From Bdellovibrionia bacterium (GTDB lineage: Bacteria > Bdellovibrionota > UBA1018), in contig JBJMMA010000252.1 of the NCBI GenBank assembly GCA_045805065.1, positions 1 through 25,693 of the forward strand: DNA of 25,693 bases. Direction: 5' to 3'. The position numbers and the translations under genes were made by a program. The notes beneath the pieces were generated by a model. That model made no database searches, was not told the DNA's origin, and was given only the letters and a program-made list of their open reading frames with translations. This document shows positions 1,089 through 8,667 of this stretch, piece after piece; the first letter of the stretch is position 1, and each line of letters opens with the position of its first letter.

Positions 1089-2305
1089 GGGTTTCCTGCC
1101 ACCATGTGATCCTTCTGAACGGGTTTCACCTTTTGACCATCGGTCAGGCTGTTTCCGACATTCACCGCGACGCGATCCCCTTGTTTGATCCCGGTTCGGA
1201 TCAGGATTTCTTTTCCGGTATTCTCGGCCAGGTCAATTTTGACGTAACGGACTTTATCGCCGGACTCGATCACAGGAACAAAAGCATCGTTCCCTCTCAT
1301 GACCAGTGCCTCAGAGGGCAACGAGATCAGGGGTTCGGTTTTGATCTTCAAACCCACCTGGACAAAGCTGCCTGGCACGATTTTTTGCTCATGGTTATCC
1401 ATGATGACTTCGCCCAAAAGCGTGCGCGTCTTGGGATCAAGCTCGCCCGCGAGCATCTCGATTTTCGCGTTAAACTTTTCATTGGGCCTGGAAGCCATCG
1501 AGATTTCGACCGGATCCCCGACCTTCACAAAAGGCGCGTCTTTCTGATCGATATAAATGAAAATCCGGAGCCGATCGATTTGCGAAATCGTGAACAAGGG
1601 TTGCGAGGCCGATTGAGACCCGCTTGCGTTCTGGATGAGAGCCCCTGGATCAACAAAACGCTGAGTGATCTTGCCTTCAAAAGGCGCACTCACGTTCTGG
1701 TACCCGAGCACCACTTCCTGGGTTTTCAATGTCGCATCAGCAATATCGGCTGCGGCAAATGCCTGCTGAGCTTCTTGGGCGCTGACCAGCTTGCGTTTCA
1801 GAAGAATGCGATAGCGATCGGCGATTCTTCGTTTGTTGATCTGATCCGCTTTCGCGGAATTATAAGCCTGTTGGGCCTCGGGCGATTCGACATGGGCCAG
1901 AAGCTGACCTTGTTTGGCATCATCGCCGATATCTGTCAGAAGCTTGGTCATGTAGCCGCTGACTCGCGCATACAGTGTGACAGAATAGAAAGCCCTGCTT
2001 TCTCCGATCAGGAGGAGATCTCGCTCCGGCATCGAGAGCTTGGCCTGAGCAAATACGACGGGGCGTCCTTCGCGCTCCATTTTCTTCAAGTTCTGCGCTT
2101 CTGCTGCTTTATCGCTTCTTTCCCTCGAGCCAAGAACCGAGACCACGGCCACCGCTCCGACAAGGATCAGCAAAGAGACCAGCGCCAGTCGGAAGAAGTT
2201 TCTTCGGTGGCGTCTTTTATGCGCATGATGCTCTGGATGCTCAGATCCCATGGGATCCGGATCTTGCTCCTGATACTCGGGACGATCAGAAGGTGGTGTG
2301 TCCAC
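1085..2305 (-). CDS. RND efflux periplasmic adaptor (membrane fusion protein)
   Basis: TM anchor, lipoyl-like halves (LYARVSGY...GDDAKQGQLLA; SAPFEGKITQRFVDPG), LDPKTRTL, PGSFV. Start placed at GTG 2305 behind GGAGGAGG; ATG 2251 is an alternative. The ORF-track start at 2461 lies inside the RND gene. Confidence 0.9.
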   Translation of the reverse strand: MDTPPSDRPEYQEQDPDPMGSEHPEHHAHKRRHRRNFFRLALVSLLILVGAVAVVSVLGSRERSDKAAEAQNLKKMEREGRPVVFAQAKLSMPERDLLLIGESRAFYSVTLYARVSGYMTKLLTDIGDDAKQGQLLAHVESPEAQQAYNSAKADQINKRRIADRYRILLKRKLVSAQEAQQAFAAADIADATLKTQEVVLGYQNVSAPFEGKITQRFVDPGALIQNASGSQSASQPLFTISQIDRLRIFIYIDQKDAPFVKVGDPVEISMASRPNEKFNAKIEMLAGELDPKTRTLLGEVIMDNHEQKIVPGSFVQVGLKIKTEPLISLPSEALVMRGNDAFVPVIESGDKVRYVKIDLAENTGKEILIRTGIKQGDRVAVNVGNSLTDGQKVKPVQKDHMVAGNP

Positions 2306-5300
2306 GTTTTGCCTCCTCCGCCAATTCGGCGTCGTACATGGCCTCTTCCTTGTGATACTCCGCACGGATCTCGTGCTTGTTCGGCATCTTGCCGCGAAGA
2401 AGCGCATAAACCACCGGCACCACAAAAAGCGTGGCCAGCGTTGAAAAAATAAGTCCCCCAATCACCGCGCGACCCAGGGGGACGTTCTGGGAGCCGGCTT
2501 CGCTGAAGCCCAAAGCCATAGGAATCATCCCAAGGATCATCGCGAGCGCCGTCATGAGAATCGGGCGCAAACGAACCTCGCCAGCTTCCAATGCAGCTTT
2601 TGCGGCCGAGGTTCCCTCTTGAGAGATGCGGAAGTCGTTGGCGAAATTGACCAGAAGATTGGAGTTGGAGACGGCGATACCGATTGCCATGATCGCGCCC
2701 ATGAGTGACTCGACGTTGATCGTGGTCCCTGTGAACGCCAGAATCCAAAGCACTCCAATGAGCGAGCCAGGCACCGCCGCCATGATGATCAGGGGATCCA
2801 ACCAGGATTGAAAAAGAGTGACCATGAGTAGATAGACAAGAACGGCCGCAAGGATCATCCCAAAACCAAGTTTTGTGAACGACTCCTCCATCACTTCATT
2901 CTGGCCGCGAAGTCGGATTGCCATCCCTTTAGGAAGCTTTCCAAGTGAGCCAATCAACGAGCGAACGTCCTTCACGACGGATCCTAAGTCTCGACCTTCC
3001 ACGTTCGCTGTGACATCCAAAATGCGTTGAACGTCCACGTGATTGACCTGGTTGAGGGTATTTATGGATTCGACAGTCGAGAGATTTCCGATGGTCTGAG
3101 TCGGAGCGGTCGGATTTGCGCTTGCGACAACTCCCGCCTGCTGCAGAAGCGTGTTTGCGCCCCCTGGCGTGATGGGAACATTCATCAGCTCTTCGAGAGA
3201 GCCCACTTTCTTGATCGGCACCTTGACCACGACCGAATAGTTCACGCCATTTTCAGGATTGAGATAATAGGATGGCGACACAAGGCTTGAGGACGACAGC
3301 GAAACCAGAATGCTGCTTGCCGCATCACGCTCTGAAAGGCCCAGCTGAGCGGCCCGTTGACGGTCCACGTTCATTTTCAAGCTGGGGTAGTTCAGAATCT
3401 GCTTGATGACAACGTCCTTGGCTCCCGGAATCAGACCGAGCTTGTCGCGAATGGTGCGCGCAAACTCAAAAGACTGCGCGATGTTTTGGGATTCGATCTG
3501 AATATCAAGCGGCGCGGTCAGGCCAAAATTGAGCACCTGACTCACGATATCGGCAGGTTGAAAGTAAATCGTCGAATCCGGGAAAGATTTTACAAAATCA
3601 TCGCGGATTTTTTGTCGATAGTCTGCTGTTGGTTCGTGACCCTCTTTGAGCGCAATCAGGATTTCCGCGTCCATGGAAGCCGCATTATCGGTAGGCACGA
3701 ACGAAATGTTGTAGAAAGTCGGAACGCCGATGTTGACGTTGATCGTCTCAAGATCCTTCGCAGGGATCAGCTTGCGGAGCCTATCCTCCACCTGAACGAT
3801 GATCTTTTCTGTCTCTTCAAGGCGGATTCCGGAGGGCCCTCTGAAGTGGATTCGCATCAGGCCTGCGTCCACGGCGGGAAAGAAGTCTTGACCCACTACA
3901 AACACCGGAAGGGCCAGCGAGACGACAAAAAGAAGCAGGGTAGCACCTAAGGTCAGCTTAGGGTGATGGAGCAAAACTTTAAGAATCTTACTGTAGCCGT
4001 GCTTGAGTTTTTCCAGTATGCCTTCATGTTCTTCTTCGTGCGGCGTACCCTTCAGAAGCCAGTGCGCCATCACCGGCACAAGGGTTCGTGAAAGAACATA
4101 AGATGCGATCATGGCCAGAACGACGGATTCTGCCAGCGGAGTGAAAAGAAATTTCGCAGGGCCGGTCAAAAGCACAACGGGGAAGAAAACGATACAGATC
4201 GCAAGAGTGGTGACAATCGCAGGCAATGCGATTTGATGCGCTCCCTTGAGAATCGCGACTGTGATGTTAGGGCTCAGCGGTCGATTGCGGTTGATGTTCT
4301 CGATTTCAACTGTCGCGTCGTCGACGAGCATGCCGATCGAGAGTGCCATCCCTCCAAGCGTCATTGTATTGATCGATTGATTGGTGAGTTTAAGTCCGAT
4401 CAGAGCGAAAAAGATCGATAGGGGAATCGAGGAGCAGACGATCAGAATGCTGCGCCAGCTTCTCAAAAAGATCAAAATCATGAGCGAGACCAGGATCGAC
4501 GCGATGATCGCTTCAGTGAGCACGCTGATGATGGAGCCGCGAACGAAAGTGGACTGATCGAAGTCGAGTTTGAAGTTCATTCCCTCTGGGGCGTTTCGTG
4601 CGAGGGATGGAATCAGCCTTTTCACTGCGTCAACAACTTCAAGCGTTGAAGCATTCGCTTTTTTGAGGATTGCAAGATAGATGGCGCGCTTCCCGTTGAT
4701 TCGAACCGCGTTGGTTTGATCGGCGTGCGAGTCCTCGACTTTTGCCACATCGCTCATCACGACTTCGCGGCCATTGACGACTTTGATCGGAAAGCGGTCA
4801 AACTCCGTGACCTTAAGCGGGCTTGCGTTTGTCAGAACGTTGTATTCAAAGTTGCCGATGCGCGCGACGCCCGCGGGCAAAATAATGTTGGATGCCTGAA
4901 GGGAGTTAGAGACGTCCTGCGGGGAGATGCCTTTTGCGGCAGCAAGCTGAGGGTCAACATCGACATTGATTTGTCGTGTCGCCCCCCCATAGGGAGCAGG
5001 CGTTGCAAGACCTGGAATTGTGAAAAGTCGGATGCGCACAAAGTTCAGCGCATAGTCAAAGAGGTTTTGCTCCGGAATGTTCTCACTGCTGATCGTGAGC
5101 TGAGCCACTGGAACGTTGGCAGCGTTAAATGGAAGAATGTTTGGTGGAGTGATCCCAGGCGGCATGATGCGCAAAATAGTCTGACAGACCGCCGTGATCT
5201 GCGCGGTCGCACTTCCGATATCGGTTCCCGGCTGGAAGTAGACGCGAAGGTTTCCAACGCCGGGGATGGATTGCGATTCGATTCGGGAAACGCCTTGCAC

Positions 5301-5522
5301 GGTCGTGGAAAATGCGCGCTCATTAATGGTAACAACGCGTCTCTCCATTTCCTCTGCGGTGAGACCCGGATAGTTCCAGATGACGCCAACAACAGGAATA
5401 TCGATGACAGGAAAAATATCCGTCAGCATCGAGAAGGCTGACAAGGCACCCATGATCATGAGCACCAGTGCCAGCACGGCAACGGAATAGGGGTTTCTCA
5501 AAGCAAGTCGTACAATCCACAT
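2286..5522 (-). CDS. RND efflux permease, AcrB/AcrD/AcrF family (1078 aa)
   Basis: MWIVRLALRNP start, TM4 SIGMLVDDATVEIENI, TM11 RLRPILMTALAMILGMIP, TM12 PLGRAVIGGL, two large periplasmic domains. Confidence 0.95.
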   Translation of the reverse strand: MWIVRLALRNPYSVAVLALVLMIMGALSAFSMLTDIFPVIDIPVVGVIWNYPGLTAEEMERRVVTINERAFSTTVQGVSRIESQSIPGVGNLRVYFQPGTDIGSATAQITAVCQTILRIMPPGITPPNILPFNAANVPVAQLTISSENIPEQNLFDYALNFVRIRLFTIPGLATPAPYGGATRQINVDVDPQLAAAKGISPQDVSNSLQASNIILPAGVARIGNFEYNVLTNASPLKVTEFDRFPIKVVNGREVVMSDVAKVEDSHADQTNAVRINGKRAIYLAILKKANASTLEVVDAVKRLIPSLARNAPEGMNFKLDFDQSTFVRGSIISVLTEAIIASILVSLMILIFLRSWRSILIVCSSIPLSIFFALIGLKLTNQSINTMTLGGMALSIGMLVDDATVEIENINRNRPLSPNITVAILKGAHQIALPAIVTTLAICIVFFPVVLLTGPAKFLFTPLAESVVLAMIASYVLSRTLVPVMAHWLLKGTPHEEEHEGILEKLKHGYSKILKVLLHHPKLTLGATLLLFVVSLALPVFVVGQDFFPAVDAGLMRIHFRGPSGIRLEETEKIIVQVEDRLRKLIPAKDLETINVNIGVPTFYNISFVPTDNAASMDAEILIALKEGHEPTADYRQKIRDDFVKSFPDSTIYFQPADIVSQVLNFGLTAPLDIQIESQNIAQSFEFARTIRDKLGLIPGAKDVVIKQILNYPSLKMNVDRQRAAQLGLSERDAASSILVSLSSSSLVSPSYYLNPENGVNYSVVVKVPIKKVGSLEELMNVPITPGGANTLLQQAGVVASANPTAPTQTIGNLSTVESINTLNQVNHVDVQRILDVTANVEGRDLGSVVKDVRSLIGSLGKLPKGMAIRLRGQNEVMEESFTKLGFGMILAAVLVYLLMVTLFQSWLDPLIIMAAVPGSLIGVLWILAFTGTTINVESLMGAIMAIGIAVSNSNLLVNFANDFRISQEGTSAAKAALEAGEVRLRPILMTALAMILGMIPMALGFSEAGSQNVPLGRAVIGGLIFSTLATLFVVPVVYALLRGKMPNKHEIRAEYHKEEAMYDAELAEEAKRGHTTF

Positions 5523-5612: not shown

Positions 5613-6320
5613 ATGATCACACTGCATCAGCCACCCCGCACCTGGGGACTGCCAAATATGAGTCCGTTTTGCGCCAAGCTGGAGACTTATCTCCGAATGA
5701 CGGGAGTTGAGTACAAGTTGAAAGGCGGGAACATCACTGAAGCGCCCAACGGCCGCGTTCCTTATGTGAAGATCGACGGAAAGGTCATGGGGGACTCGAC
5801 GCTGATCATCGAGCATCTCAAAAAGACTCATGGGGATCGACTCGATTCAGGCTTGAGCCCGGAACAAAAAGCGCTCTCACAGGCGGTAAAGGGAATGGTT
5901 GAGGATCACCTCTACTTTGCTGCTGCCGCGCTCCGCTGGATGGATGAGGGCTCTCTCGCCCATGTCCGCAAGGCGTTTCTGGGATTTCTGCCTCCTGTCA
6001 TTGGAGCACTGATTTTTGATAAACTGATCCGTAAGGATCTGGTGAAGCTAGTTAAAGCTCATGGAATGGGACAGCACCCTCGTGAGGTCATCTTGAAGTT
6101 CGCGATGGATGATCTTACGGCCGTATCGACTTTGCTGGGCGATAAGCCTTTTTTCCACGGCGCGGAACCCACGACGATTGATGCGACCCTTTATGGGTTC
6201 CTGATCCAGGTTCTTTGGGTTCCTTGGGACAACGAGCTCAAGCAGCACGCCCTGGCTCTGAAAAACCTCGAGCCCTATTGCCAACGGATGAAGCAGAAGT
6301 ATTTTGCAGATTTCAAATAA
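5613..6320 (+). CDS. Glutathione S-transferase-fold protein, metaxin/FAX-like
   Basis: WGLPNMSPFCAKLETYLR, PNGRVPY, MGDSTLIIEHL, LLGDKPFFHGAEPTTIDATLYG. Confidence 0.85.
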   Translation: MITLHQPPRTWGLPNMSPFCAKLETYLRMTGVEYKLKGGNITEAPNGRVPYVKIDGKVMGDSTLIIEHLKKTHGDRLDSGLSPEQKALSQAVKGMVEDHLYFAAAALRWMDEGSLAHVRKAFLGFLPPVIGALIFDKLIRKDLVKLVKAHGMGQHPREVILKFAMDDLTAVSTLLGDKPFFHGAEPTTIDATLYGFLIQVLWVPWDNELKQHALALKNLEPYCQRMKQKYFADFK

Positions 6321-6687: not shown

Positions 6688-7107
6688 TTACCAGCGTCCG
6701 CCACCGCGGTTGTTGTTACGATCGCCGCCACGTCCGCCGCCGAAGCCGCCTTCGCGACCGCCGCGTCCGCCACCGAATCCACCGCCGCTACCGCCGCGTC
6801 CACCACCAAAGCCGCCGCCGCCGCCGAATCCACCGCGACCGCCGCCGCCTTCACGAGGCTCCATTGGGCGAGCTTCGTTCACGACCATGGCGAATCCGCC
6901 GTAGTCAGCGCCGTTGAACTGAGAGATTGCGTTAGCTGCTTCTTCGTCAGTCGAGAACTCGACGAAACCGAAGCCTTTGGAACGGCCAGTTTCACGATCC
7001 ATGATGACCTTAGCAGAGACCACTTTTCCGACCTGAGAGAAGATCTCATTGAGATCATGATCGGTAGCCGCGAACGGCAACTTACCAACAAAAAGTTTCT
7101 TACCCAT
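6688..7107 (-). CDS. RRM RNA-binding protein with Gly/RGG-rich tail (Rbp type)
   Basis: RNP2 KLFVGKL and RNP1 KGFGFVEF, then VNEARP and a GGRGG-rich tail. ATG 7107 is preceded by GAAGGAGGA. Confidence 0.93.
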   Translation of the reverse strand: MGKKLFVGKLPFAATDHDLNEIFSQVGKVVSAKVIMDRETGRSKGFGFVEFSTDEEAANAISQFNGADYGGFAMVVNEARPMEPREGGGGRGGFGGGGGFGGGRGGSGGGFGGGRGGREGGFGGGRGGDRNNNRGGGRW

Positions 7108-7270
7108 AAATCCTCCTTCGACTTTACTGACCGCCAGCACTTCAAACTCTTGAAAAGCTGCGCGGTAGGATAGGTGGCGCCATATTAACCATTTACTTAC
7201 TTACCCGGCGCCCAGGTGTCGAATGAAGGAATCAGGAGCCCTATGCTAGACACTCTTCTCTTTCGACGTC
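7108..7270 (-). promoter_or_regulatory. Structured 5' leader of rbp-infA (anti-SD helix closing two hairpins)
   Basis: 7218-7230 pairs with 7111-7122 (covering the SD); internal hairpins at 7130-7166 and 7176-7212; alternative partner at 7258-7267. Confidence 0.55.
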
Positions 7271-7310
7271 GTTTCTACAATGCACGTCTAGCACCAATTC
7301 TAATAGAAAC

Positions 7311-8063
7311 CTATGACTTTTTGCAGCAAACCGATGCGGGATCCACACCCCAGGAGCGCAAGACTTGGGCTTCCTCTTGAGCGCTCATCACCTTTTTGAA
7401 CTTGGCTCCGGAAACCCCTTTGACGCGTTTCTCACAGCTTGTCCAATCGGAATGCCGCATGGCAGTGGCGCCGACGAGACTGAGGTAACCCAAAGGCTTT
7501 ACCTTCTCCTCGGTCCGCGGCCTCATTTCCGGAAGCGAAGTGTCGGCTGGTATGTCATGGATGGCGATCGTGTATTCCAAAAGCGGTCCCCTAAATAAGC
7601 GAATGGATTGACCCTTTGAGAAAGCGACGGCGATCTGGTCAACACGCTCATTTCCGGGGATGCCCGAGTGGCCCCGAACAAAATGCCAGTCCACTTTGGC
7701 CGACTTTTCACGGGTTGCAAGCGCAGCCGAAAGACGTTTCCAGAGTTCCTGGTTGGTGACGTCTTTGCCATCAGCTGTTTTCCAACCGTTCTTTCGCCAG
7801 CCCCAGATCCATTGAGTGATCCCGCGGATCACATAAACCGAGTCTGTGTAGACAGCAACGGGTTGGCCTTGGGATTCAGGAGCTTCCAGGGCCTTGATGG
7901 TTGCCATGAGCTCCATGCGATTATTGGTCGTTTGAGGGTCTCCACCGCCAAGTTCGACGACTTTCCCGTCCGGGGTCGCAATGATGGAGCCCCATCCACC
8001 GGGGCCAGGATTGCCGGAGCTTGCGCCGTCGGCAAAAACAATGACGGGAAATTTCTCTGTCAT
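7311..8063 (-). CDS. rnhA: Ribonuclease HI with C-terminal hybrid-binding (viroplasmin-like) domain
   Basis: [48 protein letters not shown]-terminal [18 protein letters not shown]. Start could be ATG 8063 or TTG 8072. Confidence 0.92.
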
Positions 8064-8124: not shown

Positions 8125-8667
8125 ATGGCTAAATCCGCATCTTCTACCAGCGCGACTTTAAGGACCTTGCCGTGCGGCCGTCAGGCTGCTCCAGGCCCCG
8201 CACTTCCCAGGCCCGAGCGCCTTGCTGAGTGGCAAAAGCAGCTCAGGGAATATCTAGCCGGCCAGGGTTTGAAGTATTCCGAGCAGCGTTGGAAAATTGC
8301 TGAAATCATTCTGGCTTCGGGCGGGCATCTGGATGCCCAAAGCTTGGTGGAGCGGGTCAAGCAAGAGCATCCAGGAATTGGTGCTGCCACCGTTTATCGG
8401 AGCATCAAGGTTCTTTGCGATGCTCACATTCTGAAAGAATCCCTCATGGATACAGAGGGAAAGGTCATTTACGAGCTCTTTGATGACGATCACCACGATC
8501 ATATCGTGTGTATGGATTGTGGAGAGATATTTGAATTCCACAACGACAAGATCGAATCACTTCAGAACGGGATCACGCGCGAGATGCATTTCAGCCAGGT
8601 GAAGCACCGGCACGTGATCTACGTCCACTGTGATTTAAAGAGCGACTCCTCCAAAAAGTCGAAATGA
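8125..8667 (+). CDS. fur: Fur-family metalloregulator
   Basis: GLKYSEQRWKIAE, HLDA, IGAATVYRSIKVL, HHDHIVCMDCGEIFEF. Subfamily (Fur/Zur/PerR) is not resolved. Confidence 0.88.
   Translation: MAKSASSTSATLRTLPCGRQAAPGPALPRPERLAEWQKQLREYLAGQGLKYSEQRWKIAEIILASGGHLDAQSLVERVKQEHPGIGAATVYRSIKVLCDAHILKESLMDTEGKVIYELFDDDHHDHIVCMDCGEIFEFHNDKIESLQNGITREMHFSQVKHRHVIYVHCDLKSDSSKKSK

Follow-up and report, generated by a model that had tools for sequence, protein, structure and literature searches.

The rbp-infA operon and its leader

We analysed a stretch of 25,693 nt from a Bdellovibrionia bacterium (contig JBJMMA010000252.1 of assembly GCA_045805065.1), referred to here as the window, and in it the leader of a minus-strand operon that codes for a protein with an RNA-recognition motif (RRM) and for a protein resembling translation initiation factor 1 (IF-1). 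A first-pass annotation of the window had proposed that this leader folds back onto the Shine-Dalgarno (SD) sequence of the first gene, rbp, and that an upstream segment can undo this pairing. From computed folds and from comparisons with relatives, we regard the leader, with moderate confidence, as a cis-acting translational control element of rbp and of the IF-1 gene that would be off by default. The operon is organized as follows.

8072-7311, minus strand: RNase HI-like gene, 253 aa, with the stop codon TAG at 7313-7311 (Pfam RNase_H, 1.3e-39)
7310-7108, minus strand: spacer of 203 nt between the RNase H gene and rbp, the leader under study
7107-6688, minus strand: rbp, 139 aa, a single RRM domain followed by a Gly/Arg-rich tail (Pfam RRM_1, 5.7e-23)
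6684-6406, minus strand: infA paralogue, a 92-aa IF-1-like protein with a Gly/Pro-rich C-terminal tail of 20 aa (Pfam eIF-1a, 3e-18)
6371-6331, minus strand: hairpin resembling an intrinsic terminator, with a 16-bp stem, a GAA loop and then a U run, which closes the operon

The stop codon of rbp and the start codon of infA are 3 nt apart, which bears out the operon linkage claimed in the first-pass annotation and makes translational coupling from rbp to infA likely. The product of this infA is 44% identical to that of the ordinary infA of the same genome (C261:12081-12296, plus strand), a gene that sits in an adk-map-infA-rpmJ-rpsM-rpsK row (neighbours named from the translations of their open reading frames). 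The window thus holds a second, tailed paralogue, and the leader would control an accessory IF-1 rather than the housekeeping one. Contigs from four rhizosphere RNA libraries, derived from relatives 90-97% alike and informative of neither transcript start nor strand, extend over infA, rbp and the part of the leader up to 7182, and the rbp-infA junction is bridged by one of them. The hairpin that closes the operon had a computed energy of -26 kcal/mol (z -5.55, with 0 of 200 shuffles as good); it was not among the results of a consensus terminator scan.

A long-range helix covers the ribosome site

The elements of the leader that enter into the argument, all on the minus strand, are these.

7239-7217, minus strand: GCUCCUGAUUCCUUCAUUCGAC, the switching strand shared by two folds, complementary to the GGGU at codon 2, the spacer, the SD and GUCGAA
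7122-7102, minus strand: GUCGAAGGAGGAUUUAUGGGU, the ribosome-site strand, with the SD GGAGGA at 7116-7111 and the AUG at 7107-7105
7212-7176, minus strand: enclosed hairpin 1, with a GGGCGCC/GGCGCC stem (7212-7207/7181-7176) and a long loop, present in the minimum-energy folds
7166-7130, minus strand: enclosed hairpin 2, with an ACCGC-CAGC-UUUCAA stem, present in the minimum-energy folds
7267-7245, minus strand: 5' competitor strand GUCGAA A GAG .. GUC U AGC, the 5' arm of an alternative hairpin
7175-7170, minus strand: ACCUAU, a second complement of AUGGGU (7107-7102), which pairs once the main helix is broken
7293-7285, minus strand: TGCTAGACG, a possible promoter, weakly resembling the extended -10 of the canonical rbp leaders described below and matched by eye to TGTGCTAGACT of one of them (L022)

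On the minus strand, UCCUUCAUUCGAC (7230-7218) pairs with GUCGAAGGAGGA (7122-7111) over 12 bp, with A7224 bulged. This SD-hiding helix, which the first-pass annotation had described at that length, is longer: it extends to 19 bp (7239-7218 with 7122-7102) by the pairing of GCUC (7239-7236) with GGGU (7105-7102) and of UGA (7234-7232) with UUA (7109-7107), so that A7107 and G7105 of the start codon are paired too. The helix therefore takes in the SD, the spacer, two bases of the AUG and the GGU of codon 2, and it closes a junction that holds the two hairpins, 7212-7176 and 7166-7130. All the motifs named in that annotation, and both hairpins, were recovered at their minus-strand positions, and folding of three segments of the leader gave the SD-hiding structure as the one of lowest predicted energy each time: 7090-7310 (-72.2 kcal/mol, z -3.10, matched by 0 of 200 shuffles), 7100-7235 (-50.1 kcal/mol, z -3.41, 2 of 200) and 7096-7278 (-59.4 kcal/mol, z -2.60, 1 of 200). 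Between the 27-nt ribosome site and the leader upstream of it, the most stable duplex had an energy of -23.2 kcal/mol, as compared with -15.6 +/- 2.4 kcal/mol for dinucleotide shuffles; 14 of 2000 shuffles, and 16 of 2000 windows drawn at random from the same genome, did as well. These counts place the helix outside chance expectation at roughly the 1% level, a margin that falls short of overwhelming.

Opening of the ribosome site was calculated to cost 15.3, 11.9 and 9.2 kcal/mol at 10, 25 and 37 °C, respectively. A thermoswitch had been suggested for this leader, along with a comparison of folds at 15 and 37 °C; over the range of 10-37 °C, the SD-hiding fold gained in the cold, from -4.8 to -7.3 kcal/mol relative to the alternative fold. 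Because cold closes the ribosome site further, a switch that acts by melting is not supported. Thermometers of the ROSE and fourU kinds consist of a short, imperfect hairpin whose melting, at temperatures within the growth range, turns on heat-shock or virulence genes in the warm. The leader shares with them an SD held in a helix, but it does not have the properties of a melting-type thermometer: its 19-bp helix closes a three-way junction and takes 9-15 kcal/mol to open, and the genes downstream, rbp and infA, are of the RRM and IF-1 families, relatives of which have been linked to cold in other organisms.

Transcription attenuation was considered and rejected, since no U run follows either enclosed hairpin and a consensus scan found no terminator in the leader. 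A leader peptide was also rejected: an ATG at 7193 opens a frame of 16 codons, but it has no SD, and the related genome G001 does not keep the frame.

A competing hairpin upstream

Upstream of the switching strand lie GUCGAAAGAG (7267-7258) and GUGUC (7253-7249). The strand at 7239-7217 can pair either with 7122-7102 or with 7267-7245, and the latter pairing gives a long, imperfect hairpin at 7267-7218 with the apical loop AUAGG (7244-7240). When this alternative was modelled by forcing GUCGAA (7267-7262) onto UUCGAC (7223-7218), its ensemble lay above the SD-hiding ensemble by 4.8 kcal/mol at 37 °C and by 7.3 kcal/mol at 10 °C. Within it, the cost of opening the ribosome site at 37 °C fell from 9.2 to 4.7 kcal/mol. 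The mutually exclusive folds of the first-pass annotation thus hold in so far as a competing pairing to the same strand is feasible; the release of the SD that it had envisaged is incomplete, as ACCUAU can still pair with the AUG region and the ribosome site is freed only in part.

A further upstream hairpin, formed by GGUGCUAGAC (7295-7286) and GUCUAGCAUA (7253-7244), appeared in the 221-nt fold. It was not counted as part of the switch because its 5' arm may be promoter DNA and because it is only partly kept in the related genome G011. As DNA, the same positions form an inverted repeat, GGTGCTAGAC and GTCTAGCATA (7286-7295 and 7244-7253), that spans 52 nt and whose left arm resembles the canonical extended -10; this repeat could be a hairpin of read-through RNA or a site for a DNA-binding protein. 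A sigma-54-like reading, TGGTGC-N5-GTGCA, was made by eye only and was set aside, the motif not being kept in G011.

Relatives that carry this leader

In a DNA search of 41 related genomes, the full leader was found only in G001, from the same genus (84% identity over 231 nt), and a 51-nt piece of it in G011. A metagenome scan gave three loci, two with leaders identical to that of G011 and one with a variant, L040. The leader type is therefore represented by four distinct sequences from two genera. Between the window's genome (G000) and G001, both strands of the helix are identical, and the differences fall in the hairpin loops and in a 9-nt deletion in hairpin 2. In G001 the stem of hairpin 1 survives, a single G-C pair having become G-U, and its loop is different; this hairpin is absent from the G011-type leader. 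Of hairpin 2 in G001, the basal ACCGC/GCGGU pairs alone remain, in a region where the RNA-library contig of a relative has indels. G001 and the G011-type sequences both conserve the 5' competitor strand.

The G011 type keeps GUCGAAAGA through UCUAGCAUAGGGCUC and GAUUCCUUC to UUCGAC, the two enclosed hairpins being replaced by one different hairpin and the sequence around the SD being changed. Pairing is kept there through two-sided changes: next to the SD, UU:AA has become CG:CG; in the spacer between SD and AUG, UGA:UUA has become UCAGG:CUUGA; and UUUCGAC has an extra U that pairs with the third A of GUCGAAA upstream. These pairs were read from hand alignments; MAFFT misaligned the 3' half of the four leaders. 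The first-pass annotation had pointed to conservation and covariation of the helices as the evidence to look for. Pairing is indeed maintained in the G011 type, which is suggestive, but this type is a single independent lineage (G011 with L040); the leader was traced in 3 of 116 genomes of the order.

The minimum-energy fold of the G011 leader is the alternative hairpin, and the two fold ensembles differ by only 0.9 kcal/mol in G011 and 0.5 kcal/mol in L040. For this type, with 30 nt of coding sequence in the calculation, the cost of opening the ribosome site at 37 °C is 10.9 kcal/mol whichever ensemble is taken.

A leader of the same plan precedes RRM genes across the phylum

RRM genes were present in 115 of the 116 genomes of the order, and rbp is one of seven RRM matches in the window's own genome. 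We assembled 138 rbp upstream regions from the loci of earlier searches, four paralogues of the same genome and 100 further RRM matches. The matches were taken from the best 150 of 338, and the sample consequently leans towards RRM genes most like that of the window. A conserved leader of about 95 nt, here called canonical, was found in 123 of the 138 regions (nhmmer profile, E < 1e-5; loci numbered within L004-L203), including four in the window's genome (C37:23084-23200 and C49:6234-6331, plus strand; C195:12510-12597, plus strand; and C144:21560-21661, minus strand). An extended -10 of the form TGnTAnnnT lies about 20 nt upstream of 90 of the 123 canonical leaders, as against 33 of 2000 random windows; none of six leaders of the tight rbp-infA operons described below has it.

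Of 109 non-identical leaders that scored at least 40 bits, 89 were aligned (alignment A3). The 20 left out by eye were near-duplicates, had long insertions or had the lowest scores (L143, L111, L021, L085, L020, L125, L157, L127, L029, L107, L105, L148, L042, L098, L142, L010, L044, L145, L130 and L124). Two folds emerged. In the site-hiding fold, which covers SD and AUG, UGCCCAUA pairs with UAUGGGUA and CCUCUU with AAGGAGG; 89.6% of the cells are paired in A3. The base preceding the AUG covaries with its partner (AU 36, GC 15, GU 5, UA 2), and a C to U change in the hiding strand is tolerated as G-U (CG 59, UG 30). In the 5' hairpin, GCUUCUU-AGAG-..GGGC pairs with GCCC..-CUCU-GAGCGGC, and 83% of the cells are paired; its apical pair is GC in 58, AU in 23 and GU in 6 leaders, and another pair is UA in 51, CG in 12 and UG in 12. 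Column 80 of A3 covaries with a different partner in each fold, as is expected of a two-state RNA.

A covariance model built on A3 (R1) detected the leader in 71 of the 151 genomes sampled from the phylum and in 49 of the 100 genera. Twenty members from other orders, aligned to the model but not used to build it, served as an independent set. Among these, 13 of the 18 hairpin pairs were changed on both sides, and the hairpin covariation score was 0.363, compared with 0.184 +/- 0.019 for shuffles (0 of 500 as high) and at most 0.128 for slid controls. The site-hiding fold was 82.7% paired in the same set, in which a change of codon 2 from GGU to AGU was matched by a C to U change in the strand opposite the AUG (CG 11, UG 6, UA 2).

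In the canonical leaders the site-hiding fold had a median advantage of 2.6 kcal/mol at 37 °C and of 2.9 kcal/mol at 10 °C; it was the favoured fold in 66 of the 89 leaders, and in 26 of 89 the two folds lay within 2 kcal/mol. Pairing of the distal GCUUCUU box with the SD was tried and rejected: 81% of it is pairable, with no clear covariation, and the box is better explained as the 5' strand of an extended hairpin.

The covariance model also matched a site in the window's genome that does not precede an RRM gene (C248:25457-25553, plus strand; 33.2 bits, E 2.8e-5). The open reading frame that follows, of 65 codons, codes for a very basic protein (MGQPNRATQGK...), and the canonical leader may accordingly control other small proteins as well.

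The first-pass annotation had recognized no RNA family, and this agrees with our searches. Rfam 15 gave no match at gathering thresholds in the whole window, and the weak matches within 6900-7500 were to unrelated families (12.5 bits against a threshold of 45, and 12.3 against 111). In 12 canonical loci, searched with E up to 1, there was no match besides tRNAs and two weak, unrelated ones. The best named relatives of the RRM protein, at 55-56% identity, come from a Bdellovibrio bacteriovorus strain and a Bacteriovoracaceae genome; a scan of genome contigs with the Rbp protein yielded no RRM genes but distant ones, which lacked the leader. No description of an rbp leader of Bdellovibrio-like bacteria was found in a literature search whose coverage largely excluded subscription journals. 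The canonical two-fold class is thus absent from Rfam 15, as judged by the 12 loci, and from the literature searched.

Two groups of leaders from other phyla invite comparison. The Chlorobi-RRM motif (RF01697), in the available part of its description, is a candidate cis-regulatory RNA that lies before RRM genes (Weinberg et al., 2010; PMC2864571). Like the leader of the window, it occurs upstream of RRM-protein genes within one bacterial phylum, but the phylum is another one, and in a comparison made by Rfam scan alone the motif matched neither the window nor the 12 canonical leaders. According to the accessible portion of a 2026 preprint (PMC13370968), RRM proteins of Bacteroides act as cold-shock proteins, and rbpA, rbpB and rbpC of Bacteroides thetaiotaomicron have 5' untranslated regions (UTRs) of 122-155 nt whose reporter fusions show feedback through the leader; the same portion names as an open question whether leaders of RRM genes act as thermosensors. 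As here, several RRM genes with long leaders occur per genome. The phylum again differs, that portion of the preprint proposes no structure, and the likeness lies at the level of description.

Relation of the window leader to the canonical class

The leader of the window lies directly upstream of an RRM gene that begins AUG GGN (AUGGGU at 7107), and in both kinds of leader a single strand has two roles, that of 3' half of the 5' hairpin and that of complement of SD and AUG. In both, the complementarity extends to the AUG-GGN or G-rich second codon, and insertions are tolerated between the anti-SD and the SD. The hairpin loop is AUAG in the canonical leaders and AUAGG in the window. When restricted to 7195-7300, the covariance model aligned the hairpin of the window to the canonical hairpin, with the elements in the same order, at 4.9 bits. 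The two extra hairpins of the window occupy the place of a small canonical hairpin, GGCU-CCC-AGCC, and the paralogues on C37 and C195 of the same genome have insertions at this very site.

The differences are also clear. The window leader is about 170-200 nt long, with two extra hairpins, as compared with about 95 nt; its 5' strand is the purine-rich GUCGAAAGAG in place of GCUUCUU; it adds to both folds a 6-bp extension, GUCGAA:UUCGAC; and it is without the TGnTAnnnT promoter pattern. At first the anti-SD of the window was equated with the distal GCUUCUU box. This homology was dropped on the strength of the covariance-model alignment and the shared AUAG loop, by which the anti-SD of the window corresponds to the proximal canonical anti-SD. 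On these comparisons we describe the window leader as working like the canonical class and as probably derived from it, though not as a demonstrated member, and, because both canonical folds covary, the idea of two folds gains indirect support for the window.

Loose and tight rbp-infA pairs

When the spacer and the IF-1 tail were compared, rbp-infA pairs fell into two kinds. In loose pairs, the IF-1 has 73-75 aa, is 55-68% identical to that of the window and follows rbp after 21-222 nt; most of them have the canonical leader before rbp. In tight pairs (G000, G001, G011/L040, G006 with L160 and G013 with L103), the genes are 3-6 nt apart and the IF-1 carries a tail of 7-20 residues and is 82-100% identical to that of the window; such tailed copies 3-6 nt after rbp come from four genera. 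The canonical leader was absent from all tight operons examined. In all five tight-operon genomes, a frame of the same orientation upstream of rbp ends in the ...GAKFKK...SWG... motif of the RNase H C-terminus, as judged by reading alone (G001, G011, G006 and G013 included). In the window this part of the protein includes one further feature.

Residues 208-230 at the C-terminus of the RNase HI-like protein, minus strand: RNase H1-type hybrid-binding segment (Pfam Cauli_VI, a weak match at 2.1e-4)

This segment of the RNase HI-like protein is C-terminal and not N-terminal. Elsewhere around the operon, translations alone indicate a Fur-family-like gene (8125-8667, plus strand), a glutathione-S-transferase-like gene (5613-6320, plus strand) and an RND efflux pump-like gene (2286-5522, minus strand).

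A model for the leader and its alternatives

In the mechanism that we favour, the strand at 7239-7217 would pair with 7122-7102 over 19 bp and bury the SD together with two of the three bases of the start codon. The same helix would probably set the translation of infA too, by way of the 3-nt spacing between the genes. Alternatively, the strand may pair with 7267-7245 to give the 5' hairpin, which would be made first during transcription. The leader would then be an enlarged and diverged counterpart of the leader of the same plan that precedes RRM genes throughout the phylum. By analogy, the likeliest trigger would be feedback by RRM proteins, or by other RNA-remodelling proteins, that bind the leader, an arrangement that would resemble the leaders of cold-shock-protein and ribosomal-protein genes; cold-slowed refolding comes second.

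A number of observations weigh against this model. The leader type is rare: a search of 116 genomes of the order with a 26-nt pattern from its conserved block, at up to three mismatches, found it in 3, and the metagenome scan added only one further distinct sequence. Since the helix strands of G000 and G001 are identical, they carry no information on covariation. In the duplex test, 106 of 1000 shuffles reached the native value for G011, 208 of 1000 for L160 and 968 of 1000 for L103; the lack of a significant duplex with the ribosome site in L160 and L103 argues against hiding of the site as a universal trait of tight operons. The equal cost of opening the site in both G011-type ensembles means that the alternative fold does not qualify clearly as an "on" state. 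In the window, the alternative hairpin taken alone (-15.0 kcal/mol, z -1.79) was equalled by 11 of 200 shuffles, and in the alternative fold ACCUAU keeps the ribosome site partly covered. TGCTAGACG is without the final T of TGnTAnnnT and so does not match the canonical promoter pattern, and the RNA-library contigs reach only to 7182, the uncovered 7183-7300 proving nothing. Finally, the canonical nhmmer profile gave 6.5 bits (E 0.09) on the window leader and matched the SD-AUG part only, and the covariance model gave 18.8 bits, again for the SD-AUG part only, with 4.9 bits for the hairpin region alone, as compared with 46-92 bits for the canonical paralogues of the same genome. As the models do not recognize the window leader, its common descent with the canonical class is inferred and not demonstrated.

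The 5' UTR of cspA of Escherichia coli is a cold-shock thermosensor with feedback by CspA, and the rbpA1 5' UTR of Anabaena is said to have a role at low temperature. The leader of the window shares with that of cspA its length, a small gene of the RNA-chaperone type downstream, and alternative folds that expose or hide the ribosome site; feedback by the gene's own product is plausible here as well. It is possible, if doubtful, that the leader is a cold switch of the cspA type, in which the 5' hairpin forms first, cold slows its relaxation to the SD-hiding fold and no protein is needed. The competitor hairpin does lie 5' of the switching strand and is hence transcribed first, and stability favours the SD-hiding fold, by 4.8 kcal/mol in the window and in 66 of 89 canonical leaders (median 2.6 kcal/mol); the action of Bacteroides RRM proteins as cold-shock proteins, reported in the accessible portion of the preprint (PMC13370968), fits with this as well. 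At equilibrium, however, the computed response is the opposite: in the cold the SD-hiding fold gains and the site becomes harder to open (15.3 against 9.2 kcal/mol), and the balance of the canonical leaders barely shifts (-2.9 kcal/mol at 10 °C and -2.6 at 37 °C). Moreover, with three cold-shock-domain matches in the genome, the RRM proteins are not the sole candidates for a role in the cold. The leader of the window differs from that of cspA in the protein family downstream (RRM against cold-shock domain), and the two have no sequence relation.

It is unlikely that the leader is a static structured spacer that would fix the translation of rbp and infA at a low level, or would act as a processing or stabilizing element in an RNase H-rbp-infA transcript. 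Such a transcript would suit the frames with the RNase H motif that, by reading, precede rbp in the same orientation in the five tight-operon genomes, as well as the want of a convincing promoter between the RNase H gene and rbp. A structure as stable as -59 to -72 kcal/mol, a weak alternative hairpin and a ribosome site that is freed incompletely point the same way. What a static spacer does not account for is that neither the competitor strand nor the loop block UCUAGCAUAGGGCUC varies between the two genera even though the hairpins enclosed by the helix have been replaced, that the folds of the G011 type are balanced to within 1 kcal/mol, and that both folds covary in the canonical leaders.

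Chance complementarity between a pyrimidine-rich stretch and the purine-rich SD, without function, we hold to be very unlikely. Any CU-rich stretch readily pairs with an SD, 14 of 2000 shuffles did as well as the native duplex, the duplex test fails in three other lineages and no family model matches; but the whole leader has z values of -2.6 to -3.4, it is 84% identical across the genus with the changes confined to loops, the G011 type maintains pairing through two-sided changes, and the same design recurs in 123 of the 138 rbp leaders examined. A small-molecule riboswitch with the 5' hairpin and its conserved internal loop as aptamer is scarcely credible: two mutually exclusive folds and the strong conservation of unpaired canonical nucleotides, in the internal loop of the hairpin and in GGCUCCCAGCC, would suit it, but no Rfam family matches, the genes code for RNA-binding proteins and an initiation factor and not for metabolic enzymes or transporters, and the hairpin is small and simple, with an internal loop in the window that differs from the canonical one.

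Significance for the RRM genes of the phylum

More tentatively, and at somewhat less than even weight, we propose that the window leader and the canonical leaders form one phylum-wide class of bistable riboregulators of translation, without a match in Rfam 15, that may be tuned by the supply of RRM chaperones, by cold-slowed refolding or by both. The analysis offers a testable structural model, with strands and base pairs named, that covers a single unusual operon as well as the large class related to it. Recent work has connected RRM proteins of bacteria with adaptation to cold, and the preprint (PMC13370968) calls it an open question whether their long leaders serve as RNA sensors. The tight pairing of rbp with a second IF-1 points to an unstudied stress module that would unite an RNase H with an RRM protein and a variant of IF-1. 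If the proposal is correct, the leader would be the RRM-protein counterpart of the cspA leader and, by gating a tailed IF-1 paralogue, would link RNA-chaperone homeostasis to a dedicated initiation factor.

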